Assembly (NCBI GenBank): GCA_951406725.2
Contig: OX597819.1
Span: 26,474,001-26,538,000, forward strand
Length of the DNA: 64,000 nt
Origin: Octopus vulgaris
Taxonomy: Eukaryota
Direction of reading: 5' to 3'
In this document: piece by piece, positions 2,963 through 56,840 of the stretch
Layout of the letters: each line of letters begins with the position of its first letter
How positions within the stretch are numbered: the stretch's first letter is position 1
Notes under the pieces: model-generated
Told to the model about the DNA's origin: nothing
The model's input: the letters and a program-made list of their open reading frames with translations, nothing else
The model's database searches: none
Program-made: the position numbers and the translations under genes

Positions 2963-3355
2963 TACTCTTTTACTTGCTTCATTCATTTGTCTGCGGCCCT
3001 GCTGAAGTACCACCTATAGTCGAGCAAATCGACCCAGGACTTCTTCTTTGTAAGCCTAGTACTTATTCTATCGGTCTATTATGCCGAACCGCTAAGTAAC
3101 GAGGACGTAAATACACCAGCATCGGTTATCAAGCGATGTTGGGGGACAGACACAAACACAGACATATATATATATATATATATATATATAAACGACGAGC
3201 TACTTTCAGTTTCTGTCTACCAAATCCCCTCACAAGGCTTTGGTCGGCCCGAGGCCATAGTAGAAGACACTTGCTCAAGGTTCCACACAGTGGGACTGAA
3301 CCCGGAACCATGCGGCTGGTAAGCAAGCTACTTGCCACACAGCCACTCTTGCACC
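2963..3355 (-). mobile_element. tRNA-derived SINE, family B (CORE-like central segment, internal TA microsatellite)
   Basis: Minus strand reads gtggctgtgtggcaag..ggttccgggttcagtccc (A/B boxes), ..ggaaccttgagcaagtgtcttc.., tail ..gcaagtaaaagagta; near-identical to 18725-19132, 28403-28840 and 56481-56840. Confidence 0.9.
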
Positions 3356-4234
3356 TATTGATAAGATTTATTTTTTAAAAATCATTTCCTCTAGTTTTAC
3401 AGTATTGCTACTGTGTTTAGATATTCAATATTCAATACCAATTATTTTTATTGAAGTATTTTGATAATAGAGTACTGTAACTGTAACTATCTTACATATT
3501 CACTACACAGCTTTAACAAATGAGTCCTACCGTGAAGCTGTTCATCAAAATTGTCCTATTCATTATAATAGGGGTTTCTATAAATCAAAGCTAATGAATT
3601 ATACCGTCCGCATGGGGCGCATGCCTATAGCAAACGTTTAGTGTAATGCATATTTGAAATATGTATTGTATGTGCGTTTTGCTAATCAGTAACACAAAAG
3701 TAAATTTTTATGCAATTCCCTCTTCTCAAACGATTAAATAGAATACTACACAATTTAAAAGATTATTTGAACGATTTTCTGTCGACACACTATATTTATA
3801 GCATTTCCAATTATTTGTATAATAAGCAAGCGATTCTGTTCATCAACGCTTGCTTGTATAGTGTCTCTGTCTCACAGACTCGCTCTCTCTCTCTCTCTCT
3901 CGCACACACACACATGTACACACGCGCGCACACACACACACTGGCGCACATGTGCAAGCACACTCAAACTCTCACGCAAGCGTGCAAAAAAATACACACA
4001 CACACACACACAGATCTGCATACTGGAGCACATTCACAAATATCGAAACAAACTACGTAACTGGATCTCCGTCAGTTTCAATGGTGCCTATTCTGGTTGT
4101 TCAATCAACTGAACCGTATGCTCATTATAGTGTGAGTGATTGAGTATTCCACAGACAAATGTACTAGTAATGTACTTTTCAAGCGGAACCATTTAGAGAC
4201 TACATTTAACAAGAATGTGTGTGTATCTTATTTT

Positions 4235-6847: not shown

Positions 6848-7240
6848 GCGTGGCTGTGTGATAAGAAGCTTGCCTCACCATCACGTAGTTCCGAGTTCAG
6901 TCCCACTGCGTGGCACCTTGAGCAGATGTGTTCTACTATAATCTCAGGCTAACTAAAACCTTGTGAGTGGATTTGGTAGACAGAAACTGAAAGAAGCCCG
7001 TCTTATGTATATATACATATGTGTTTATGTGTTTGTCCCCTCACCCATTACCTCTTGACAACCGGTGTTGGTGTGTTTCCGTACCCTGTAACTTAGTATC
7101 TCAGCAAAAAGATCCTATAGAATAAGTACTGAGCTTTAAAGAAAATAGTCGTGGGTTCGATTTGTTTGAATAGAACTCTCTAAGGCGGTGCTCCTACATG
7201 ACCGCAGTGAAATGAGTGAAACAAGTAAAACAAAATAAAA
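6848..7240 (+). mobile_element. Family B SINE
   Basis: gtggctgtgtgataag..gagttcagtcccactgcgtggcaccttgagcag..gtgagtggatttggtagac..aggcggtgctcc..gaaacaagtaaaa. Confidence 0.85.
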
Positions 7241-9528: not shown

Positions 9529-9655
9529 AACTCGGCAAAAGAGACCGATAGAATAAGTACTAGGCTTACAAAGAATAAATCATGGGGTCAATTTGCTCGA
9601 CTAAAGGCGGTGCTCCAGCATGGCCGCAGTCAGATGTTTGAAACAAGTAAAAGAG
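9529..9655 (+). mobile_element. Family B SINE 3' fragment
   Basis: tcggcaaaagagaccgatagaataagtactaggc..gaaacaagtaaaagag. Confidence 0.85.
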
Positions 9656-13310: not shown

Positions 13311-15454
13311 TTGCAATGGAATTGACCAAGAATTGTCGCATACTTATTTGGACATGCATTTCAAAAGATGATAAAATGAGATTCTTTGTCCATAATATAT
13401 TTACAATTGTATTAAACTTTTAAACTACATATATATTATAAATATATATGTTACTGTAAGCGATAATAAATTTGATTTCATTCTTTTATCCACACACTAG
13501 CTAAGGCACTCGCATAGACTGACACATATTTATTCGCCCACATATACATATACGCACGTGTATTCATCATCCATCGACAGTGTATTTCATATATCGTGAT
13601 AAAAGAGAATAGCGTGCAATTCCTCACAAATTAAATTATCTTTGATGTTTCGTGGGTCAAGTTACTAGTTTGATTTTCCTGTTCATACAGATGCAAATGG
13701 AATTTGTATTTCAATATATAATATAAAACAGTATGTTTGAGAGGATTTAAACATGCATGTGAGTATTTCGCTATCACACATACTGTGATTTCAATTTTGC
13801 CTTAAGTTTAAATCTATCTTATTTAGGAAACATATATTCAGACAAAAGACGAATAGCAGTGTAAACTGATATAATTTTACTCTATTGTAATCACAGAATG
13901 GAAAATATATTTTCCAATTTTTGATACGCTAATTTGTTATGACATGTACTATCCCTAAGATAATAATATGGTTCATGGTGAAAGAAATTCAATTTTACTA
14001 ACAATAAATGTGAAATGAAAAGCGGAGCAAAGTTTTCAAGAAAATGGACAAGGATAATCTCCCCCACTCTCGCTCTCTTTTTCTTTGTCTCTGTATCTCT
14101 CCCTTTAGATGTGTGTGTGTGTGTTTTGCTTTTTTATTGTGTGTTTTTGCACGTGGATATAAAGACACGCAAATCATGAATTAAAGTGTGTTTTGAAATA
14201 AGCTCATAGAGATGTGACTTGACTTTAAAAGATTGCATATAAAGTGTACGTGGATGTAAGATATTATGAAACATCGAACAGATAATTTCAAGTACAATAT
14301 TCAAAAAAAGTAACGTATTTTGCCCAATGTAGATTGATCTCTTCTGCTTTGCTCATGTGATATGTCTAAGAGCTGCAGGCTAAAAATGCAGCTCACAGTT
14401 GCAACAACGTGGGAATTATGTACCACAGCGCTCTGTTGTAAATCTATAACAATTGTCGTGATAGCGAGGTTCTCTCTCTGTTACCAGCTATAAGGTATCC
14501 TAGTTTATAAAACATCTTACTATTCCCTGATTAGTTAAGAAGAATTAATACACTAAATATGATCTTCTTTATAAAAGGCGAAACTTCTTTCTCTTACAAC
14601 TCACCATGCTAAATCAAGAAATATGTTTTGCTTATCTATTCTATAAACGCTACCGATTAAATACTTGAAGTACAATATCTTCTGTCAACTCATGTTAGAC
14701 GTTATGATATAGCTTAGCTTCAAAAACCTTGCAGACGTATTCACAATCCAGTGATGGTGATCCGAATAAAAATGAAAGAAATAAGTTACCTGTTATGAAT
14801 AAAACACTGCCATTTATTTAGTCTACTGCCTTCGGCTTGATATCACAGTTAACATGAGGATTAATGGTACACTTAAACGCACGGCAAAATATTTCATATC
14901 ATGTATCATTCTCACACTGAGAAATTTGAAATCTAAACCCCATGAGCCTCTTACCTACATATATACATACAAACACACATATACACACGCATACGTACAC
15001 ACACACACACACATACATATATATATACATACATATGTACATATATACATACATACAATATGCTTTATATATTTTCATTTGTCACTCAGTCTTCACTACA
15101 ATAAATAATAAACAGACTGGCTATAAACTTCGTAATGGGCAGATTGATAACAATGACAAAGCAGAGTGTTTGCTAACAAATCGAATCGAACAAATACAAA
15201 GTAAATCCGATAGATGTTATTGTATTATCCCCATGGTAAATCACATCTGTGATTTTTCTTATAGTTCCATTTACTTTAGATAAATACATCAATAAATAAA
15301 TAAATAAATAAAGTAATCCTTTTTTTCCGTTCCTAAGACTGCGCACTAAATAAATGTGTGCTTATGTATATGTATATATATATATAAATATATATGTGTT
15401 TGCGTAGGTATTATACACATTCAAACAGACACAAACATAAAACACACACACACG

Positions 15455-15490
<36 letters not shown>

Positions 15491-15878
15491 AGATTTGGCA
15501 TTGTAGAGTTTTAGTTCATAATGAAGCAACGGGAGGAGATGAAGGTCCGTATATCTTGAGATGTTTGATTAGATGTCAACGCATAGATAATGACTTAACC
15601 GCAAACTCGGCTCTACACAGTCCTAGGAGGGAAGCAGATTACAATCCCAATTGACGGAGCTGTACTTGTTTGTAATTCAATGGCTCAGCCTTGACAGCGT
15701 CGCACTCGTTGTCTGTTTTATGCTTATGGGGAACTCCGACTTCACACGCTTATTGAATAAGTAGATTTTATTCAACTCAGAGAACGACTGAATGTAAGCA
15801 TGTCGAAATGGAAATGAGTCTATCATATATGAGTGTGCGTGTGTATGTGTATGAGTATGTATGTATATATGTATTATG

Positions 15879-15910
<32 letters not shown>

Positions 15911-16168
15911 CATGTATATATATATATATCTACATGTACACACACACACACATATATATATATACACACACACAACACACACAACACACACACACATGTA
16001 TATATATATATTTATAAACGCATATAATTCATGTTTTTATAATAAATTACGTGATTATTACTTCTATTAATGGATTTCATGAGTACAGACAATTGCAAGT
16101 ACATGCACGCTTGTGTATTCAATAATGTTTGCATGGCAATAATTAATGAGGGAAGCGCTTGTATATAA

Positions 16169-16199
<31 letters not shown>

Positions 16200-16231
16200 T
16201 GTATGTATGTATGTATGTATGTATGTATACA

Positions 16232-16935
16232 TAATGGTAAGACGAGAGAACAAAATATTGACAGTTTTTGTGGGTGTTCTCTTGTTTGACTAATTGCAAG
16301 GCAACAGAGGAAAAGAAAATAAGGCGGGAGGAATTAACCAAAACAAGATGGGCGTACGGAGTGTATAACGGGTTGTACACCCCAGAAGAACAGGTTCAGC
16401 AGCACCTCACCGGTATGACCGCGATGGCCTTGCCGCGGAAAATCGACAAAGACAATTACTGCAACATCCACAACGTCTCACGGGGCATATTTCTCAGACG
16501 AGACGTAGTTATCCCGGCAATGAGGGATCCCAGAAAGCCCGAGGCAACACAAAATGATAGCAGCCGATCAGGCCCCTGTATTTCTTTACTTTTCTATCCT
16601 CAGCGGCGATACCTGGGTTTGTGGCGTTTGCTGGAATGTTGGAGCAGAAGAAAGTGTCCCATTTTAGGGATCTGCATCCCCTGCATGGGAAGTGGGTTAT
16701 TCCGTCGAGGCGCGTACCATCTCTGCGGTCAAGACCCACCGGCTCCAGATGGGAGGGGAAGCCAGCCGCATTGCGGCTTCTTCTAATTTTGTCGAACAGA
16801 GCGGCACGACGGAGAGACTGGTCCGCGCTATGGCTGAAGGATAATGGATGCAAGCAGAATTCATCGACTACACACCACAACAGCATTTGTACGGCTCTCA
16901 CACGCGGAGGCCACGATCGAGAACACTCCCATATG
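16232..16935 (-). mobile_element. CRE-like non-LTR retrotransposon 3' end (restriction-like endonuclease), degraded
   Basis: VDEFCLHPLS..AGFPSHLEPVGLDRRDGTRLDGITHFP..LKWD..AAEDRKVKKYRGL..YHF, then ETLWMLQ*LSLSIFRGKAIAV, matching the CRE-type RPDG..WD..AE..K..KY..QRLS..RGNA signature; the 3' end abuts (ATAC)n. Confidence 0.8.
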
Positions 16936-17175
16936 TGACTAAAAATTCCCACTTGTAAACTGACCTCTTAAAGTGACTAATTCTCCATAGAATGTGATTT
17001 CAAGATAAATTATAAATTTATACAATCATAACCGGTATAATACGTCTTGTATATGTATGAAACCACTCGATTTTAAAATAGTAATTTGCAGTTCTCTCTG
17101 TAGAAATCTGTACTGACTAAAAACTTTCAACGATGTAATTTCCTCAGGTGCATTTTACCCAACATACAATGCTGA

Positions 17176-17790
17176 CGGCGGCGAGTTTGTAAAATCGTCA
17201 GCACGCCGGGCGAAGTGCTTAATGGTATTTCGTCTGCCGTTACGTTCTGAGTTCAAATTCCGCCGAGGTCGACTTTGCCTTTCATCCTTTCGGGGTCGAT
17301 TAAATAAGTACCAGTTACGCACTGGGGTCGATATAATCGGCTTAATCCGTTTGTCTGTCCTTGTGTGTCCCTTCTGTGTTTAGCCCCTTGTGGGTAGTAA
17401 AGAAATAGGTATTTCGTCTGCCGTTACGTTCTGAGTTCAACTTCCACCGAGGTCGACTTTGCCTTTCATCCTTTCGGTGTCGAAAAATTAAGTACCGGTT
17501 ACGTACTGGGGTCCATGCAATCGACTTAATCCTTTCGTCTGTCCTTGTTTATTTCCTCTGTGTTTAGCCCCTTGTGGGCAATAAAGAGATAAGAAACGTT
17601 AGCACGCCGGGCAAAATTCTTAGCGGTATTTCATCTATCTTATGTTCTGAGTCTAAACTCCACCGAGGTCGACTTTACCTTTCATCCTTTCGGGGTCGAT
17701 AAATTAAGTACCAGTTGCGTATTGGAGTCAATCTAATCGATTAGCGCCCTCCCCACAAAATTTAGGCCTTGTGCCTAGAGTAGAAAAAGA
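17176..17790 (+). mobile_element. Trimeric family A SINE
   Basis: Three consecutive ccgaggtcgacttt(g/a)cctttcatcctttcgg units; junctions aaagaaata|ggtatttcgtctg and gagata|agaaacgttagcacg. Confidence 0.9.
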
Positions 17791-18724: not shown

Positions 18725-19132
18725 TACTCTTACTCTTTTACTTGTTTCAGTCGTTTGACTGCGGCCATGCTGGAGCACCGCCTTTAGTCGAGCAAATCGA
18801 CCCCGGGACTTATTCTTTGTAAGCCCAGTACTTATTCTATCGGTCTCTTTTGCCGAACCGCTAAGTGACGGGGACGTAAACACACCAGCATCGGTTGTCA
18901 AGCAATGCTAGGGGGACAAACACAGACACACAAACATATACACACACACTTATATACATATATACATATATACGACAGGCTTCTTTCAGTTTCCGTCTAC
19001 CAAATCCACTCACAAGGCATTGGTCGGCCCGGGGCTATAGCAGAAGACACTTACCCAAGATGCCACGCAGTGGAACTGAACCCGGAGCCATGTGGCTGGT
19101 TAGCAAGCTACTTACCACACAGCCACTCCTGC
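18725..19132 (-). mobile_element. Family B SINE, full length
   Basis: Near-identical to 28403-28840. Confidence 0.92.
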
Positions 19133-21082: not shown

Positions 21083-23125
21083 ACATTGCCGACGCTTCGA
21101 CCGCGCGAAACTCCAGAAATCACAGGCATCCCAAGACTGCAGGGAATCCATTGAGAGACACATAATGGACCTCCCAGAGCCGACATCCATTGCGGATCGC
21201 TGGACCATACTTCGTGAAGCCATAACCGCAGCAACTGAGGAGACGATCGGCTTTGCCCGGAAGAATAACCAAGACTGGTTTGACGAGAATGATGAAACCA
21301 TCTCCGTCTTATCGAAGCCAAACTCCGGACGCGCCTCGCCTTCGAGAACCATGCCACTGCGGAGAACAAACGAAAACACCAGCAAGCATCAGCGGAATGC
21401 CAGCGAGGAATTAGAGAATCTCAGAACATCTGGTAGCGGAGAAAAGCAGAGGAGATGCAAAATAAGGTCATTAGTGGGTGGCCTGAAGAACGCAGGTGGC
21501 TCTATGATAACCAACACTCAGGGAATCCTCGATCGCTGGAAGTTCTATTTCGAGAGCCTAATTAACAACCAATCACGCATTCCAGACGATCTCCTACAAA
21601 CACCCGACAGCTCCCCATACGCCATTGGATGTCTCTGCCGTCCTGGCCCCATGAGTTCAACAAGGCATTCGAGCGCATGAAACCGGGCAAAGCTCCAGGA
21701 TCAGACAACATTCCGTTTGAGTTTTTCACGCACGGAGGTCCTCAGCTGAGAAATCATCTGACGCTCTTTATCCTCAAGGTCTGCGCAAGCAACACCCTCC
21801 TGAACGACTTCCGCGATGCAACTATCATCAGCATTCATAAGAAAGGAGACCGTGAGGATTGCAACAAGGCATCTCACTCTGAGTATTGCAAGCAAGATCT
21901 TCGCCAGTATCCTGCTCAATTGCATCCCCATCTTCGCGGAAGACGTCCTCCCTGAGTCTCAGCGTGGCTTTCAACGCTTTCGAGCTCCAATTGACGTGAT
22001 CTTTTGCGCCCGACAACTTCAGGAGAAGTGTAAGAACAACACAGCCTGCAATATTCATCTTCTGGGACCTTTGATAAGGTTCCCTGTCCTGCAATGTGGG
22101 CCTTCCTTACTCGGTTTGGATGTCCGGAGGAATTTATTGCCCTGGTCCGCTCCCTTCACAACAAAATGCCCTCACAAACCCGTCTCCCATCACAACGTGT
22201 CTTAAGCAAGGATGCGTCCTGACACCAACCTGTTTCTCTTTGTACATGGCCGCCATGTTCAACGAAATCCCACTAGACTCACCTTATATCCACATGCGCT
22301 ATCGCTTGTTTGGCGGACTATTAAATATCGCACGTCTCTGCGTAAAGTCGAGGGCCTCCGCTATCACAGTCCGTGAGATGGAATATGCCGACGACAATGC
22401 CACCTCGAACCGGACCGTAGGCCTACAAAGGACGGCCGATCTTTACAATGTGGCTTATGAACACTTCGGGATGCAGGTAGACATATTAAACACCAAGACT
22501 CTGATCCAACCTCCACCAGGCCAGAACAGTCCAACTACTAACATTAGTGTCAACGGCCACCCCTTAGAAGAAGTTGAGCACTCCTCATACCTTCGGAGAC
22601 CTCCACGTGTGAAAAAGACTTGGAGAATACCAGCAGGGCTGCCCACTCTGCCTTCGGTAGACTCAGCCAACGGATATTCTTCAATCACGCACTGACCACC
22701 CGGACAAAGGTCGTGGTCTTCAGTGCTATTGTCCTGTCAACTCATCTCTACGCTTGTGAGACTTGGACGCTGTACCGCAGTGACTTCTAGTGTCTTGAAT
22801 ACATCCAGCAGTCTTCGACAGATCCTCAAAATTCGATGGGAAGATCATATTAGCAAAAATGAGGCTCTTCGCGCGCCTCACTAACAAGCGTCGTAGCCAT
22901 CATTCTTCGCCTTCGTCTCCGCTGGGCAGGTCACGTCCAGCGTATGTAGCCCTCACGTCTCCCGAGGATCATGCTCTACGGAGAACTTGCAATCGGAACA
23001 AGAATTCTGCCACGACTCTTTCACCACCGACATGGACTCACATTCGACACAAACATCCGCCGAGGAGATTGGATGTACACTGACGGACCCAATACTCTCG
23101 GATACGGGTTGGAGCCGACGATGTC
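21083..23125 (+). mobile_element. RTE-clade (BovB-like) LINE, 5'-truncated, frameshifted RT pseudogene
   Basis: NQDWFDENDE, GKAPGSDNIP, FRDATIISIHKKGDREDCN, LPESQRGF, IFCARQLQEKC, KQGCVLTP, YADD and MLYGEL motifs spread over several frames. Confidence 0.93.
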
Positions 23126-23253
23126 TGTACATATAAAGGTGTCCGTGTATGTAGTGTGTTTCAGACAATTTTCAGTAGCTTTGAAAATATGAAAGTACTT
23201 CAGGCTTTACTTGAACAATTGCCTGTGTATATGTGTGTGTATGTGTGTGTGTG

Positions 23254-23553
23254 AAGGCGCGTGGCTTACTGTTTAGGGTATTCCGCTCACGATCCTAGGG
23301 TCGTGAGTTCAATTCCCGGTGACGCGTTGTGTCCTTGACCAAGACACTTGTTCCAGTTCACTCAGTTGGCAAAAATGAGTAGTACCTGTATTTCAAAGGG
23401 CCAACCTTGTCACACTCTGGGTCACTACAAGAGAACTACGTTAAGGGCACACGTGTCTGTGGAGTGCTCAGCCACTTGCCAGTTAATTTCACGCGCAAGA
23501 TGTTCCATTGATAGTATCAGCTGGGAACCTCGTCGTCGTAACCGACGGAGTGC
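23254..23553 (+). mobile_element. tRNA-derived SINE related to family C
   Basis: gaaggcgcgtggcttactgtttaggg..gtgagttcaattccc; the segment gagaactacgttaaggg..gtctgtggagtgctcagccacttgc is shared with about 44020-44068. Confidence 0.82.
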
Positions 23554-23762
23554 TCCTTATATATATATTATAATATAACAATTGTTAAATTTTAATTTAT
23601 ATAAATTATTTTATGTATTGGCTTAAGTCTTTCTTTGTTTGATTTGCATAATAGTGGTTTTGTCTCTAATTTAATATAATATAATATTTTACTATAAAAT
23701 TGGATTCAATCCTAAATCTGATTTTCCCTGTAAATTTGGATTTATTCCCTAATATTTATTAT

Positions 23763-23798
<36 letters not shown>

Positions 23799-24479
23799 CC
23801 ACAGATAGTGACAATGAGAATAAAATTTCGTGTACAAACGGTAAACGTAACAGTCTACTATAGAATTTAGTTTAGTTGAAATATTTTAAAATCTTGCCGT
23901 CTTAAAGTAAATAAATGATAATTATTGGAAATATAGAATTTGTATTGATTCGTATGTTTACCCTCCTCGCTTTATTCGTTCTGTAATTACAAATATCAAT
24001 TATCACTTTATATGAGCTTTCTCTAGAATTTTATAATTGCGCAATTATATTTGGATTTTAATTAGTATCATCTTTGTTTTGCTTATCATATAATTTACTA
24101 TTGTAACTTCAAAGAAACATTACATTGTAAATCTTACTCTATTACTATTAACTGCTTTTGTTTAGATTTAACTTCCAGCCAAAGATTTAACTATGATTTA
24201 ACTTTACTTAAATTACTCGAAACAGCAAATTTCTTGTTACTAAGTTGCCCAGTATTTTGACAAAATTTTATCACATAATGTTTGGTATTAATTAATTTAT
24301 GACCTCTGTGTCGACTTGAGGTAGAGATTAAAACTCATTATAATCAATCAGTTTGATTATTTAACATCGAGTCATAAATTACTTTAAATTACTCTAGTCA
24401 CCAGCCTTGACATCTATTACTCTCAAGAAACATGCTGCTTAGCTCACTCTATCTATACCAATACCATTTCCACCTCCTC

Positions 24480-25200
24480 TGTCGATGTCCCTTTCTCCAT
24501 CTCTATCTAGAGGAACGTATTCTAATTTCTGGAAGTGGGCTGTAGTGTGGCCTAGTTCAAAGACGAACTACCTAGCTGACCCTACCAACGATAGCTTTAA
24601 CGCTCTGACAATATTTCAAAGACGATGGGCTCCACCATTAGAAACACAACTCCTCATCTTGAATGACCGTCGTTAGAGCTCTTGTCGATCCCTTATTTTC
24701 CGCAAAGCTTTCATCTGCATCAGGCACGTAAATCTCCCAGTAAAACAGTAAACCTGTAGGCACCCATGTCTCCAGATATAGGTTGTGGACATGTAGTTTA
24801 CGAACAGACATTAGGCGTTCTCTGGGCCACACTCTAGTGTGTCCCATGGTTTGGTGTTTTCCACCCAACAATACACTCGAATACACCAAAACCTCCTTGC
24901 TATTACCTCAAGTGCAACCACTACTACTCAAATTACACCAATGTTCATTTCGCCTTGTACCTTCGCATCCGTACGTTACCAAGTCTCTCACGAAAAAAAC
25001 TAACTATCCTGACAAACATCTGGTTCCAAAATAATATTTGCATCACAAACCCTAGTCTTTCTAGAGGTAAAAAAGTACTTAAAACTCTGAAAAGCACAGA
25101 TGAGATCCTCAAATGTGTAATAAGTAACAGTGATGCTGAAAGAGAGGATTTGAAATAAATCCGAAAAACAGTCAACCAAGCAAATTACGTAAAATCATGC
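24480..25200 (+). pseudogene. Possible highly decayed PLE reverse-transcriptase C-terminal region
   Basis: CPFLHL..LVQRRTT..LHH..VVRALV..HPYV loosely follows the order PFLD..VYRKPT..S.H..L..R..LPY; many stops. Confidence 0.35.
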
Positions 25201-26287
25201 ACGAACACACGCCAATTTCTACCCACAGAGAGCTGGCTCGTCTCTTTAAATCAATAGGTTTAAAATAGACACAATATTGTGTCCTGCTTATTGCTTTTGC
25301 AAAGCGATGAACTCAAGTAATACAAGAAGCCATCGTCTTTCATTACGGCAGTGAAAGAATGTTTGTTGTGAGAGAGGTTCTGTAATACTTATGAATACTT
25401 AAATAGATATAAGAATTTTGGAAAAACGTTTTACACCTTTATCTCACTGAAACCTATTGCATAAATTTAGTGTTGATTTAGGAAGATTTGATGTCAAATC
25501 TTATATTGCGTCTAACACTGGATATCAATCACTTCTAACACTAGCTTAAGTAGTTATATTATGCACAAGATTATCTCTGCAAACAGCAGTGTCCATTCCA
25601 CAATCACGTACATCTTTAAAAAATCATGCCGAATATGCGTAATAGAATATGTAACAAGTTTTGATGAATGAATTACAGGATTCAGTAGTGCTGATTACCA
25701 AATCATGGGGATGGGAAACAAGCGTCTTATCACATAACCATGTTCTGCAACAAAACGTACATGAGATCAAATTCTTCCGACAGAAAAATCCGAGAGAAAA
25801 AGGGTTATTGGCGATGGTTTGAACGCGTTTCCTCATATTTTTGAATATGGTGAAACATTGATAAAATTCGATTACCAGATGGAATTGTTAAACTTCGCAC
25901 CTACACTTTATTGGTGGAGGTCATGTGTTATAGCTGATGTCACTTTTCTGATTTGAAAATCAAAGATGTTCTCGATTTTATTTCCCCCGTTTTCTCGTCA
26001 TCTAGAACATAATTTTCCAATCTATCTTTTCTGTTTTAAGACGATAGAAGCAATTTGAGACAACGTGACTGCTATCCCCAAGTGACGATTCTCTTCACTA
26101 TTTCGTCCGAAACACTTTGTATATAAGTTTGTATGTAAGAGTAATAGAGAAACACAGACAGTAGAGAGATTGCTAGCTAGCTAGATAGATAAAACTGCAG
26201 TATGGAATTGCCCATAGATCACATTAATATGAGCATTATTTACATTACTTACAATTGAAGGATATTTGTCCTCATCTTGTTTGTTAT

Positions 26288-26332
26288 TAACACGTTTCGG
26301 CTGATATACCCTCCAGCCTTCAGCAGGTGTCT
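26288..26332 (-). ncRNA. Degenerate minimal hammerhead in PLE terminal repeat
   Basis: Minus: gacac CTGCTGA a ggctg gagggtatat cagcc GAAA c gtgtt. The inverted copy (28957-28991) reads CTGATAA, so the two copies together imply CTGATGA. Confidence 0.65.
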
Positions 26333-26415
26333 TCGTGGAATTTCGAACATAGATTCTCATTCCTAAGGTATTTTTCGATCTTGTTGTTGTTATTCTTCTT
26401 CTTATTATTATTATT

Positions 26416-26490
26416 CAGGTCACTGCCAGGAATCGAACTCGGAATATTGGGGTTAGTAGCCCGCGCCCTTAACCACTACGCCATATGCCC
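26416..26490 (-). promoter_or_regulatory. tRNA-like Pol III cassette (A and B boxes) inside the PLE terminal repeat
   Basis: Minus: gggcata TGGCGTAGTGG ttaagggcgcgggctactaaccccaatattcc GAGTTCGATTCC tggcagtgacc; second copy at 28330-28396 on plus. Confidence 0.75.
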
Positions 26491-26534
26491 GTGGGCAGTT
26501 ACGGACTGAATTTTAGGGTTTATAAATCTAATAT

Positions 26535-28320
26535 TCTCATATCCTTCCTTAATACCGGTTCCCATATTCTGTTCATATCTGCTTAGGAGGTTGCTGTGTC
26601 CTAGCATATGTGCTGCTTCTTTTATTTTTCATATTTTCCAGTAGTCTATTATTTTGACTTCATCCCACAGGGGGAGGTGGTCCCCACTTTTCCATACATG
26701 ATCAGCTATACCTGATTTATCAATATCTCCCCATGTCACAGCTTTGTGATGTTCCTCTACACTTATTTGGGAGTGGGGTGACATGTTTCGCCTTTGTATA
26801 ACCTACCACTGCTGCATGGGATGGAGTACACGCAGTTCTTAGTCATATTCTCTTCTATTGGTGGTTTTTACTCGTAAGGAGATATTTGCGAAGTGTTGTA
26901 TTACTCTTGAATACTGTCCTGATGTCATATGGACCACATATCTTTTGTATATTTTCGGAGAGGCCTTTCACATAGGGTAGATTAACTGGACTGTTTATCG
27001 GTTTCATCCTCTCTTTTCTTCATAATTGGATTGGAGAGTATGTGTTTGGGGTAGTTGTTGCTTAATAGATTGTTATTGAGCTTGATCATTTCTTCGTGAG
27101 ATTGTTACTTAGCTTGATCATTTCCTCGTGGTGGGTATCACGATCGCTAGTTATATTCATTGCTCGATGTTTTAGGCACTGAGCAATCCCTCTCTTTACA
27201 CTGTATGGATGGTGGGAGTTGACGTTGAGATATCGTCCAGTGAAGCTCCGTTTGCGGTATACGGATGTCCTGAATCCATACTTGGTGCGTGTTATTAATA
27301 TGTCCAGGAAAGCTAGCTGATTGTTCTTTTTTCTTTTTCCATTGTGAACTGTATGGATGGCTTTATTGAGTTCACATGACCTAACAGCCCTTGGATATCT
27401 TCCTGGTGGGGCCAGAGTATGAAGGTGTCATCAACATATCGCAGCCATAGGGTTGGTTTTTCTTGGTGTTGATCCTAAAGCCAAATTCTGAAAGTATTCC
27501 ATGTATATATTGGCTATTATCGGTGATAATGGCGAACCCATAGCTAAACCTTCTTCTTGTCGATATATATCAGTATCCATACTGAAGTAAGTAGTTTCTA
27601 CACAGAAGGTCAACATTTCCACCAAGTTTCTTATTGGTATACTAGTGCGTTCTTTTAGATGGGTGTCGGTCACTAGTTTTTCTTGAATCACCGATAGTGC
27701 TTCACCAGTTGAAACATTGCTGAACAGATTTATCGCATCCATACTCACCATCTGGTTGGATTCAATGTGTATCCTTGATCAGATCTCTGAAGTGGGTGGA
27801 ATTCTTCACGTAGGATGTTGACTTTCCTGCTAATGGACTGATTATATCCACAAGGAATCGGCTCAATGGATGACATGCTAAAACCTCTACAGCTGCTCAC
27901 TATAAGTCTTAATGGAGTACCATCCTTGTGAATGTTAGTGAGACCAGACATGTGTGATAGTTTATTGTAGTGTTGAGTCAGTTGTCTGTACTTCATTGCT
28001 GTAAAGTGATTCTTGTTCTTGATCAAGATCTTTGACAATTTCCTCTCTGTTTTCAAAGTAGGGTCTTTCTTTACTTTGCTGTAGCTACCATCACTTATAA
28101 GACTTGCCAGTTTTTTTGAGTAGTCAGACTTGTTCGTCACCTCTGTAGCATTTCCCTTGTCTGCTGGAAGTATTAGGATGGAATTGTCACTCTGTAATGT
28201 TTTGATAGCGAACTTTTCTTCCTTAGTGATGTTTCGTTTGGGAAGTTTCGCTTTTTCTAGTACCTGTCTCACTTTCTACTTTTGGAATTATTGCTGTCAT
28301 CTCTTCAATAGGGGCTATTA
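26535..28320 (-). pseudogene. PLE reverse transcriptase and GIY-YIG endonuclease pseudogene
   Basis: PADKGN, IHKDGTPLR, MVSMDAINLFSNV, QEEGLAMGSPLSP, WLRYVDDTF, LAFLDILI, VYRK, SHHP, YKGET, SGIADHVW and KEA motifs, with frameshifts. Confidence 0.93.
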
Positions 28321-28402
28321 TGTCCAAAATGGCATAGTGGTTAAGAGCGCGGGCTAACCCCCAAGATTCCGAGTTCGTTTCCAGTCAGAGACCTGAATAA
28401 TA

Positions 28403-28621
28403 CTCTCTTTTACTTGTTTCAGTCATTTGACTGCGACCATGCTGAAGCACCGCCTTTTAGTCGAGCAAATCGACCCCGGGACTTATTCTTTGTAAGCCCA
28501 GTACTTATTCTATCGGTCTCTTTTGCCGAACCGCTAAGTGACGGGGACGTAAACACACCAGCATCGGTTGTCAAGCAATGCTAGGGGGACAAATACAGAC
28601 ACACAAACACACACACACACG

Positions 28622-28669
<48 letters not shown>

Positions 28670-28840
28670 CATATATACGACAGACTTCTTTCAGTTTCCG
28701 TCTACCAAATCCACTCACAAGGCATTGGTCGGCCCGGGGCCATAGCAGAAGACACTTGCCCAAGATGCGACGCAGTGGGACTGAACCCGGAACCATGTGG
28801 TTGATTAGCGAGCTAATTACCACACAGCCACTCCTGCGCC
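28403..28840 (-). mobile_element. Family B SINE inserted in the (AAT)n of the inverted PLE repeat
   Basis: Full-length copy splitting acctgaataata / (aat)n gatcgaaaaatacc. Confidence 0.92.
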
Positions 28841-28844
28841 AATT

Positions 28845-28895
<51 letters not shown>

Positions 28896-31800
28896 GTAAT
28901 AATAATAAGATCGAAAAATACCTTAAGAATGAGAACCCAGGTTCGAAATTTCCCCCAAGACACCTGATAAAGGCTGTAGGGTATATCAGCCAAGATGGTA
29001 ACAAATATCCGTCAATTGTAAATAATGTAAATAATGTACGTAATTCCTCATCTCTTAAAAATAGAAGTGTATAATACGAGCATTGTTCATTAGTTTCGCT
29101 TTATTGTGTCCGATTTCGATACGGCAAACTTAGTTTTTACCATAGACTCATTACTTATCAGAGCTGTATGATAAACTGCATACACAGAACAATATTAACG
29201 AGTTTTCTGTTATCAACCAGCTACTGATAAGTCAAAAGCCAATCTAATTATTTTATGGTGAAAAATTACTTTAGCTGATCCTTTCTCAGTAAGCTTGGAA
29301 CCATAATATATTTTGATTACACTGTAAAAATAACGCTGTGGGATACCTATTTTGTGCATATTTTATCAACGAGGAAAGGGAAATCGCATCATATTTCTCG
29401 GAAAAAAAACGAGAAATATGTAACATTACGTAATAACAGTTTCTTGTGCTGCCACCGTGTTGGTTCACTCAACTATGAAAATTGCGAGTTATTAATAATG
29501 TAAATTCTTGAAAATGCATTGCCATTGTTGGTTCAATATTTGACATAAAGTGAATGTGTTAATTTCCTGCGAATATTTCAAAAGACTATCGAGGCTGGCA
29601 ATCGTGATAAACGCCATATAAATGTTCGTCTTCACTAACGCCATTCAAATATGTAATTGAGGTATTCTCATTTCATGGAAAATTTACGGCATTCATGAAG
29701 ACTCCCAGTCACTGTTGGTTTTCAAACGCGCCTTTTGTCGATTGGTTCCTCTTCTCAAATTTTAAATGCAAAGAGAATGTTTTTATGTTTGCCTTTATTC
29801 CCACTGTGTAACATACATGATTAAAAAAAGTTTGATGGAGATATTTTTTGTTCTATACATTAACCTAAAATTCTGCAATGGCTAACTGAATGCTTGTAAT
29901 CTTAGGAAGCCATTGATTGGGCAATAATTAATGTGATCTGTATTTATTGAAATTCTCTTATCGCTTAAAAGTACAGATCAATTGCATGATTTATTGATAG
30001 GATTTCTTTAAATGAACAAGAGACATCGACGAGACTTATCCACCCATGTAACGGTAGTTACACAGCCGAGACAGTAGAATATACCAAGTGATTTCTTTCT
30101 GTTTTTCTGCTTGAAAAGAAATCTGGTATTAGCTATTTAAAATTTAGGTAAATATTTTTCAATTTCTATGAAATCAAAGCCCATTCTGGACTCTTGGAAA
30201 GATGTACATCATGTAAACACAGGGGGATATGTTTTTCACTTTGGAAGTAAATATTTTCTTATCAGTAGATATATCGTTTATTCATTAGATCCTATGACCG
30301 GTCATACAGATGGCATTTTGGGTAAGTGTCTTTTACTAAAGTACCAGGTAGATACAAGCCTTGCAATGCAATATACAGAATATGGGAGCAGACCTTTCAT
30401 ATTGTGTTACGCTGATATCACCTGAAAATTAATTTAATGTTTCACGTGTCTTAAAGAATATTCAAAACCTCTACACGTAAATTCAGTGAGTGGGAAGTTT
30501 GATATCCATCGTCGAAGAGTTTTAAATAGGTGCGTTTTAAACGTTTCTTCCATTCTTTTCATGTTTATAAGTGAACAAGATTTACTGACTGATCGCATAA
30601 TGTTTATTTTAATCGTTTTCCATCCGAGTAAATTGAATCATCGATTATCAAACCTAGCGAGGTAACAATTGCTGATGCTTGTATTACATATATCTACAGT
30701 GGATTTAGTGTTACATCTAGCAAAGTCGACTTCGTGATCGAAGACTTAACAAATGTCACCTCTTAATCTTTGAGTTAGCATTTTTCTCTCCATAAATAAT
30801 TTTTCCCACTCTCAAGGTAATACTAAGTACAATGCGGACATATACTGCCCAGTATACAAAACGGTAAAATCTATATCATTTGATCAATGTTTCTTAAGTT
30901 TGCAGATCTGGGAATAGCTAAGTGGGGGATGAGTTGTACCACGAGTAGTTAGTTTTCCTCGGTCACCTGCCGATCCGAAAATTTTCGACGTTTATCATTA
31001 CACTGTGTAACGATGAGGTTCGGCAGTGGGAAACACGAATCGTCTATTCTACAAACGATAATCTGATTCGGGCTATCATGAATTTATTACAAGACAATAA
31101 GATGGTTTCGCTTCATGTACAACTTAATCCTATATTATGAATCTGGTAAATACATCCCAATTTTAGAATAACATTTATTTACAGCTAAAGAGAAGCATCA
31201 TACATTCCGCTTAAAACCCCCAAACAGTTATGCATTTTGCCCTTTTATATCTTTTGGTTACTGTAGTTTTGTAATAAAAATTTAATATTGATCAAATGTA
31301 TTATTTTAAGTTCTGTCATTTCTGGAATTGTGGGAATGGGGTTAATTCTCTGAGACAAGCTTCATCTTCCTTTTCTATACCATGCTTTTTAAACTGATTT
31401 ACATTAACTTATATATATATATACGCGTGCAAACAGAGATTTATGGTATGTTCTCGTATGTATTCATATTACCAATAATTTTTGTTTTTTATTCAGCGCA
31501 TATGCTGATAATCGTGTGATGTGATTGCTCCCTCAAGTAGTTACCTTGCAGAAGCATATTTCAAGTGAGCGAGTAATGGTGTTTGCCTTCTTTTTTCACG
31601 CCACCTGCTCATTTTCGCATTAGAAATATTAATTATACATAATGTTACATGTTTAATAAAGTTTCAATTCCTGTTACTGTTAGTGCCATGAAATTTAAGG
31701 AGCTAAGCTGTAAAAAAAAACTCTATACAAATCTTTTGCTATTACTTTCATTTTATAAATTCTCTAGCGTAGCATAGGAGATAGAACTGATTAAATTTTC

Positions 31801-41153: not shown

Positions 41154-41195
<42 letters not shown>

Positions 41196-41197
<2 letters not shown>

Positions 41198-41356
41198 GAC
41201 AGGCTTCTTTCTATTTTCATCTACCAAAATCCACTCACAAGCTTTTGGTTGGCCTGAGGTTATAGCAGAAGACGCCCAAGGTGACACGCAGTGGGACTGA
41301 ACTCGGAACCGTGTGGTTGGGAAGCAAGCTTCTTAACACACAGCTACTCATGTGCC
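41196..41356 (-). mobile_element. Family B SINE 5' half
   Basis: acgacaggcttcttt..ccactcacaag..cgcagtgggactgaactcggaacc..acacagctactc. Confidence 0.82.
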
Positions 41357-42356
41357 TATATTTGTTTATTTAAACAAGATGGACTCCACACAGATTCTGG
41401 CCACAAAATTCACACACCAGCGCATTGGGCAGACCAAAGGTGTACACGACTGCACATTGCAGACGTGTTGCTTCGACTACAATGCGGCTGAACCCAGTAA
41501 CATGAGATTGCAAAACCCAACTTCTTAGCATGTCTGTGTTTGACGAGTTTATTCTAAAATCCCAGTTGATGAGGTATTTTCTATAAATTTCACCCGACTC
41601 TTTATAGTAAATCTGCCCACCACTAAAAATTATTCTTACATCTGCTTTAATATAACATTCATGCAACATATACATCCACAAATCTACATGTGATTGTGTG
41701 ATTGTGTACATGTCACAGGCTAAAATCCATGCATGTATTGTACATCTTCTTATCTGTCAATCAAGGATCAGTGCTCATACAAACACATCATATTTTAGCA
41801 CACGTGTTTATATGTTGTCATGCGTGCATGTTTATATACTACAAGCTAAAAGTTCTGTATGCTTTGAAGGCATGCATATATATAGAGTGTGTAAGTATGT
41901 GTGTTTGTATGTATATATATGTGTGTGTGTGTTTGGAGATAGACAGATACACACACACGCACACACACACACACATACATACACATACACAAACAGACAC
42001 GTAAGTGTTCAAGCTGATGTTTACGTGATTTACTTCTATATTAATAGTTTCAACGCTGGCAATTTTTTTTTTTACTAGAATTCATATCTTTTTTTTTCTT
42101 TTTTGCGTGGTTGCACTTTTAATTTACTGTTACTATATAAATATAGATCATGGTATACGGAGTTTGTAATATTCATTTCAAATGTACGTGTACTCTCCCA
42201 CCAAAGTTATTTTGACAAGCTTTCCCTCGAGTCTTTTTGTTTTCCATTTCTGATAAGAGTTAGTTATTTATGTTCTTGCATAAGATCATGTTATAATCAA
42301 TTTAGATAAATTGGAAATTTTCTCCCGAAAAGAATAACAAATTTGACATGCGAGCT

Positions 42357-56378: not shown

Positions 56379-56480
56379 TATATGTAAATACACTGTCGAA
56401 TCACATCCTAGATTCTATTGAACACACATACTTTTTTTTTTTTTAAAAACTGCTATATCTTTTATTAAGTAAATAATATA

Positions 56481-56840
56481 GGCGTACGAGTGGCTATGTG
56501 GTAAGTAGCTTGCTTACGAACCACATGGTTCCGGGTTTAGTCCCACTGCGTGGCACCTTGGGCAAGTGTCTTGTACTATAGTCTTGTGAGTGGATTTGGC
56601 AGACGGAAGTAGAAAGAAGCCCGTCGTATATATGTATATATATGTGTGTGTGTGGGAGGGTGCTTGTGTGTCTGTGTCCCCCAACATCGCTTGACAACCT
56701 ATGCTGGTGTAATTTAGCGGTTCGACATAGATACCGATAGAAAAAGTCCTGAGGTCGATTTGCTCGACTAAAGGCGGTGCTCCCACATGGCCACTATCAA
56801 ATGACTGAAACAAGTAAAAGAGTAAAGGAGTAAAGAGTAA
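56481..56840 (+). mobile_element. Family B SINE
   Basis: ggcgtacgagtggctatgtggtaagtagc..gaaacaagtaaaagagta. Confidence 0.9.

Follow-up and report, generated by a model that had tools for sequence, protein, structure and literature searches.

The question raised by this locus is whether a tRNA-like sequence with Pol III promoter boxes, lying beside a hammerhead motif, belongs to the Penelope-like element (PLE) around it, and whether it could start that element's RNA. The window, a 64,000-nucleotide stretch of Octopus vulgaris contig OX597819.1, was compared with the genome of the animal (2.8 Gb in 227 contigs searched). The tRNA-like head proved to be a regular part of the element's pseudo-LTR (pLTR). 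As a captured tRNA-type promoter it probably starts the transcript and turns a solo pLTR into a SINE-like unit, a reading in which we infer Pol III activity from sequence features.

Architecture of the insertion and its family

Positions 26238-29071 of the window are a single decayed insertion of Penelope/Poseidon type, with a target duplication on both sides whose two 13-bp copies are identical in 12 letters (Table 1). Along the minus strand, the ORF stop codon at its family position (26520-26522) is followed by 29 nt, the head, an AAT/AAG/AAC run, 50 nt and the hammerhead. This is the order that the original prediction had placed after the GIY-YIG end. Its further statement, that the inverted copy is arranged in the same way, is also borne out: on the plus strand the head (28329-28402) leads into an AAT run, a hammerhead and the tail, and both arms lie inside the one insertion bounded by the target duplication. 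A stop codon that appeared to lie inside the A box was rejected as an artefact of an 11-nt deletion in the window copy, the family stop being 29 nt upstream of the head.

Table 1. Features of the insertion, in window coordinates
Feature	Position	Strand	Remarks
Left target-site duplication	26225..26237		13 bp; final 4 letters equally match the element end
3' pLTR, without tail	26238..26497	-	
Minimal type I hammerhead, decayed	26290..26330	-	Overlaps beginning of ORF frame
ATG	26358..26360	-	Family ORF start if the pLTR is 5' of a body (L196 translation)
(AAT/AAG/AAC)n run	26381..26415	-	Later insertions often land here
tRNA-derived head	26414..26490	-	Of 15 host tRNA genes compared, tRNA-Arg matches best
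B box	26429..26440	-	From sequence
A box	26473..26483	-	From sequence
12-nt palindrome, 5' edge of head	26486..26497	-	ORF-less copies most often begin and fold back here
RT and C-terminal GIY-YIG ORF, 5'-truncated, frameshifted	26520..28327	-	89.5% identity to family majority
Inverted pLTR and tail	28329..29071	+	Starts at A box 28330-28340; B box 28371-28382
tRNA-type SINE-like repeat, unrelated, later insertion	28405..28843	-	In AAT run of inverted copy
Decayed hammerhead of inverted pLTR	from 28960	+	Tail to 29071
Right target-site duplication	29072..29084		Matches left copy

The inverted copy is interrupted by a 439-bp repeat, which carries internal CA/TA microsatellites, is abundant, and has six further matches in the window (2965-3359, 6850-7230, 9532-9655, 18733-19132, 41155-41359 and 56478-56822). 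The AAT run of the pLTR is often hit by later insertions in other copies as well (L060, L071, L080, L087), and in L375 it holds a 2.1-kb LINE-like piece. Elsewhere the window contains a LINE-like reverse transcriptase (RT) fragment at about 22000-23000 (a 205-aa frame at 22078-22695) and, by eye, another tRNA-headed SINE-like repeat at 23256-23550.

The protein evidence places the element among PLEs. RT pieces with YVDD and GSPLSP, and then endonuclease pieces, can be read on the minus strand of the window, and in family member L174 the RT scores above the Pfam cut-off for RVT_1 (39.7 bits). The C-terminal GIY-YIG endonuclease is recognized by a VYSIPC..YKGET motif downstream of the RT and by 39% identity over 178 aa to a protein with PF01541 (P0066); a Pfam search of the decayed pieces gave no GIY-YIG match. 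A CX2-5CxxC zinc-finger linker between RT and endonuclease is absent from the L101 translation, read by eye, and lack of this linker is a Penelope/Poseidon feature (PMC8557442). Pseudo-LTRs, an inverted 5' partial copy and a 30-40-nt tail are all present. The element thus has the tested features of a Penelope/Poseidon PLE with endonuclease and is assigned to that group by these features.

The family protein has 899 relatives at E<=1e-20 and is about 40-44% identical to proteins of Anolis, Branchiostoma and Harmonia. Thirty loci were fetched from among the matches to a distant PLE protein, all of them members of this family and 88-96% identical to its majority sequence in the coding part, which makes it the dominant Penelope/Poseidon-type family of the genome. 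The closest proteins (P0001-P0035 and P0170-P0177) come from ENA contigs and are about 60-72% identical, one cluster at about 60% including proteins of the barnacle Amphibalanus amphitrite; horizontal transfer among marine animals is a possible source of these relatives. Other stop-free PLE-related frames (L276 3346-5256, L277 4083-5933, L278 1-1350) are about 30% identical to the family and served as controls for T runs.

The family hammerhead has a 4-bp stem I, a CUGAUGA core, an extra A, a 5-6-bp stem II, GAAA and a palindromic loop III. It is a predicted ribozyme of the minimal type I found in PLE pLTRs, with the layout given in PMC4209133. Neither hammerhead in the window is intact: in the minus-strand copy a core A has become C and 3 nt including the cleavage site are deleted (26290-26293), and the inverted copy has lost core letters. 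The 3-nt deletion preserves the ORF frame and recurs in many copies, both with and without a linked ORF, which means that a master whose ribozyme is predicted to be dead remained mobile. This agrees with PMC11167929, where hammerhead cleavage was unnecessary in vitro.

The 3' ends, obtained from 79 of 87 scanned loci, fall in two clusters about 40 nt apart, a spacing that is a signature of PLE tails (PMC11167929). At the other end of the element, copies selected by the N-terminus show the tail continuing into the ORF, with the ATG lying after the AAT run and before the hammerhead; the pLTRs of L194 and L196 read into the N-terminal ORF region, that of L196 from the ATG. Because the ORF starts at this ATG, past the AAT run, the head forms the 5' edge of the repeat unit and precedes the start codon.

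The tRNA-like head and its ORF-less copies

The family pLTR runs from the tRNA-like head with its A and B boxes through (AAT)n, the ORF start codon and the minimal hammerhead to the tail. In all 29 endonuclease-selected copies the head stands at the same junction after the ORF, and the cassette is thus part of the family consensus. Its presence in both arms of the window insertion and in these 29 other ORF-linked copies upholds the claim that it was part of the mobilised element, and refutes the idea of a one-off SINE insertion into the window copy, which has the SINE-like look of the head in its favour and nothing else. An independent SINE with the head and its own target duplication was not seen among the loci examined. 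Few loci have the head alone: L146 and L386 appear to be of this kind, and a third case, L375, is explained by its 2.1-kb insertion. A possible second case of A and B boxes before a hammerhead, at one of 49 distant PLE loci (L299), was rejected, the hammerhead there following directly after the ORF without a head.

As in tRNA-derived SINEs, the 5' head is tRNA-related and bears A and B boxes, both of them intact and at promoter spacing. Neither ARAGORN nor Rfam called it at normal thresholds, relaxed ARAGORN searches gave noise only (controls likewise), and on folding it does not form a cloverleaf. Compared with host tRNA-Arg genes it reaches z values of 5.8-7.3 over shuffles, with 46-51 identities in 74-75 positions. 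We tentatively take tRNA-Arg as its source, the best of 15 host tRNA genes compared, a set outside which lie long-arm Ser, His, Gln and others. The candidate tRNA-Thr was set aside: of three heads compared, two scored lower with it than with Arg and one about the same. The 17 nt 5' of the head (window 26498-26507 and family) look like an eroded reverse complement of the first part of the head and may be the relic of a fold-back event that joined head to ORF. By this account a SINE head of tRNA-Arg-like type, followed by an (AAT)n tail, would have become attached downstream of the stop codon and ahead of the hammerhead. In the same genome, L221 holds seven tRNA-Cys-like genes within 3 kb, two of them with altered anticodons.

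Units with cassette and hammerhead but without the ORF, whose existence was a prediction of the captured promoter, are in large excess. The ORF lies upstream in 1 of 27 distinct head-selected loci and 1 of 27 distinct hammerhead-selected loci (29 loci per set, less two duplicates each), in 3 of 29 loci selected by the unit, and in none of the six insertions in 40 evenly spaced 10-kb samples (400 kb). Exact matches to 20-mers across the genome numbered 896 for the ORF end, 5148 for the head and 5501 for the hammerhead; reversed controls gave 0, so the head and hammerhead matches are not due to chance. Corrected for the fraction of copies in which each 20-mer survives (14/29 for the ORF end, 9/26 and 5/17 for the head, 5/23 and 6/24 for the hammerhead), these counts correspond to about 1,900 arms with the ORF end, 15,000-17,500 with the head and 22,000-25,000 with the hammerhead, where the arms of inverted pairs are counted separately and the calibration sets are biased to younger copies. 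Copy number therefore rises roughly 8- to 9-fold from ORF end to head, inside about 57 nt. The units at the loci examined are single, head-to-head or rearranged, with no head-to-tail tandem arrays among them.

The original prediction had spoken of a PLE-dependent SINE. ORF-less units of SINE-like form do exist, but they are solo pLTRs derived from the same masters as the long copies and do not constitute a separate SINE subfamily. That the short units might be a PLE-dependent family with masters of its own, to which the ORF-linked copies are related only by shared sequence, could be argued from the excess of head over ORF end, from the SINE-like order in which a head, a microsatellite and the 3' end of a retroelement follow one another, and from the junction common to L380 and L383. 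We consider it highly improbable. Divergence at non-CpG sites is similar in the two groups (22-28 copies per group): 3.7-4.8% in the head, and in the body 4.4% for ORF-linked and 5.5% for head-selected copies. The few columns that differ between ORF-linked and ORF-less copies look like CpG or G-to-A decay and not common variants, while the 3-nt hammerhead deletion occurs in both (5 of 25 and 2 of 22), and 5' junctions vary from copy to copy. Short and long copies thus have the same age and variants, with no sign of the independent non-coding lineage that a SINE family would have.

The inverted junctions of L380 and L383, which lie 0.86 Mb apart on C1, are identical; either a segmental duplication or a re-mobilised composite may account for them.

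Template ends and the start of transcription

The 5' ends of copies are concentrated at the head. Among hammerhead-selected copies, 17 reach its first 18 nt and 16 of these end there, as tRNA-derived SINEs start at their heads; the expected share, from the rate of truncation in the ORF (mean 330 nt), is 8% (crude P about 2e-17). The other 10 of the 27 hammerhead-selected loci, which have no head in the sense arm (four have it only in the inverted arm and six start in the AAT run), count against the captured-promoter reading. The palindrome reaches 7 nt upstream of the head's start, and ORF-less copies often fold back there. Of 27 distinct palindrome loci taken in order of position, 16 fold back exactly at the palindrome and 11 extend upstream, ten far into the ORF and one (L377) for about 45 nt. 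In a list of 100 position-ordered matches to palindrome plus head, in which 18 palindromic pairs appear twice, fold-back letters precede 66 and master letters 27.

A leader of 6 or 7 nt is usual for tRNA genes. A Pol III transcript would begin about 6-7 nt before the head, and from a 3' or solo pLTR would be an RNA of about 300 nt comprising head, hammerhead and tail. The element's protein would copy this short RNA starting at the tail, and the cDNA, on running off the RNA's 5' end, would fold back at the palindrome. Run-off and fold-back of this kind would yield a large excess of short, often head-to-head copies. We are less sure of a further step, which may well not hold, in which the promoter of a 5' pLTR reads through the terminator-free body and supplies long templates. 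The mRNA from which the protein is translated may come from read-through by Pol II of the host.

In the fullest form of this idea, Pol III would make the entire 2.7-kb replication template, the captured tRNA promoter having replaced the usual pLTR promoter and the body having been purged of T-run terminators; every solo end repeat would be a SINE-like element moved by Penelope enzymes, in tens of thousands of copies. We offer this as a tentative proposal, judging it somewhat less than likely. Counted against a captured promoter is the fact that Pol III RNA is uncapped and a poor mRNA, and so is the argument of PMC10886601 that any autonomous partner of a Pol III element has to be transcribed by Pol II. 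Three raw RNA runs from one study (about 6% of each) show both strands at equal depth, tracking copy number, with no pile-up of starts at the head; such data carry no information on Pol III, since standard RNA-seq loses short RNAs.

The main rival supposes that longer transcripts contain a hot spot for fold-back. The head would then be a passenger, all templates would be long RNAs made by Pol II or by host read-through, and the palindrome or hairpin would be a stall or fold-back site that gives rise to short copies. PLEs that lack a tRNA head typically have palindromes at their inverted junctions and at the 5' ends of their pLTRs (PMC3846280), and the 5' edge of the octopus head is predicted to form an RNA hairpin of -11.6 kcal/mol (in a CpG-decayed copy). 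Some templates began upstream of a head, as shown by the order ORF end, pLTR, ORF start in L193 and L203; the 11 of 27 loci that extend upstream point the same way, and of the nine copies selected by the N-terminus and extending into the RT, none has its start precisely at the head (the nearest, L213, starts about 36 nt inside). The corresponding cDNA hairpin, however, is weak (-3.2 kcal/mol), and still 16 of 17 copies end there. A passenger head also leaves unexplained why the A and B boxes are intact and spaced as in a promoter, and why runs of four T (T4) are absent. We regard this rival as unlikely, though clearly less so than a separate SINE family, and prefer the captured promoter.

Runs of T terminate Pol III. 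The family majority sequence (2,800 nt) contains no T4. Synonymous-codon shuffles of its 2,484-nt coding part, in two frames split at an ambiguous A run, predict 2.9 (P=0.026), and TTT occurs 13 times against 21.3+-3.4 expected. The depletion is weaker under Markov nulls (P=0.10 at order 1, P=0.22 at order 2). Single copies at 30 loci (50.9 kb) have 25 T4, or 0.49 per kb, and no T5. For comparison, 49 of 80 metagenome PLE loci, several from the same metagenomes, have an ORF of >=300 aa; one of these 49 ORFs lacks T4, as do none of the 21 of >=500 aa, each of which has at least three. Together the 49 contain 408 T4, with 352 expected, and 24 control ORFs of similar T content average 2.8 per kb. 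Other PLE ORFs in the octopus genome have 3-6. Counted against the argument is an 863-aa LINE-like ORF of the same genome (L150 4205-6793) with one T4 where 4.2 are expected. The T4 depletion is real, but it is based on a single ancestral sequence.

Comparison with known systems

No description of a tRNA-headed pLTR was found in the literature searched; Repbase, Dfam and SINEBase, which lay outside the search, may contain the family. The available parts of four papers on octopus repeats (PMC13282606, PMC8967140, PMC4758252, PMC4824008) give family counts and no such structure.

In its general plan the element resembles Poseidon_Ac of the green anole (PMC11167929) and Pen2a of Adineta (PMC3846280), which have an RT followed by a C-terminal GIY-YIG domain, a pLTR overlapping the ORF start, a hammerhead at that start and two 3' ends about 40 nt apart. 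With Pen2a it further shares the inverted pLTR, the tail on one side and the target duplication (PMC3846280). Pen2a has a putative TATA/Inr promoter (PMC3846280, in which the word "tRNA" is absent) and Drosophila Penelope an internal promoter overlapping a 5' intron (PMC8557442). Unlike these, the octopus pLTR begins with A and B boxes, and its solo pLTRs far exceed ORF copies.

A likeness to the schistosome Sm-alpha repeats, part of the original prediction, holds for the order of a Pol III-type promoter and then a hammerhead, found in Sm-alpha and Sj-alpha (PMC6765202), and is otherwise loose. Those repeats are often tandem, are non-coding, and have an active ribozyme that cleaves in cis and trans, with no PLE ORF named in the available text; the octopus units, each the pLTR of a coding element, have a hammerhead of minimal type and occur scattered or head-to-head. 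Animal non-LTR retrozymes are likewise non-coding hammerhead units related to pLTRs and are probably moved by PLE proteins (bioRxiv 10.64898/2026.07.22.740005; PMC7229834). They are defined as tandem repeats, however, and the available text mentions neither a tRNA head nor a Pol III promoter (bioRxiv 10.64898/2026.07.22.740005).

The octopus SINEs OK, OR1 and OR2 also have a tRNA-derived head. They are said to have been described by Ohshima and Okada in 1994, one family being Arg-derived and about 270 bp long. These families, cited as CORE-SINEs (PMC4824008, PMC4758252), are reported to carry a CORE domain, whereas (AAT)n and the pLTR directly follow the head here; the present family may be identical with one of them.

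Pol III promoters are taken as a mark of short non-autonomous elements (PMC10886601), and a coding PLE with such a promoter would blur the divide between SINEs and autonomous elements. It would also show a direct route from PLE ends to SINE-like elements. A defined RNA 5' end would allow the head-to-head inversion of PLEs to be probed, a sense template with cDNA fold-back being set against the antisense template discussed in PMC3846280. For annotation, at least about 15,000 arms could be filed as unclassified SINEs though they are PLE ends.

The nearest concept is that of the TRIMp3 elements (Cassandra, Helenus and Ajax; PMC10886601), in which a Pol III promoter derived from a small RNA is fixed in the terminal repeat; the proposed origin is a SINE that inserted and was then duplicated at either end. 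These LTR elements are non-autonomous and measure about 300-1,260 bp (PMC10886601), whereas the octopus repeat belongs to the protein-coding PLE itself.
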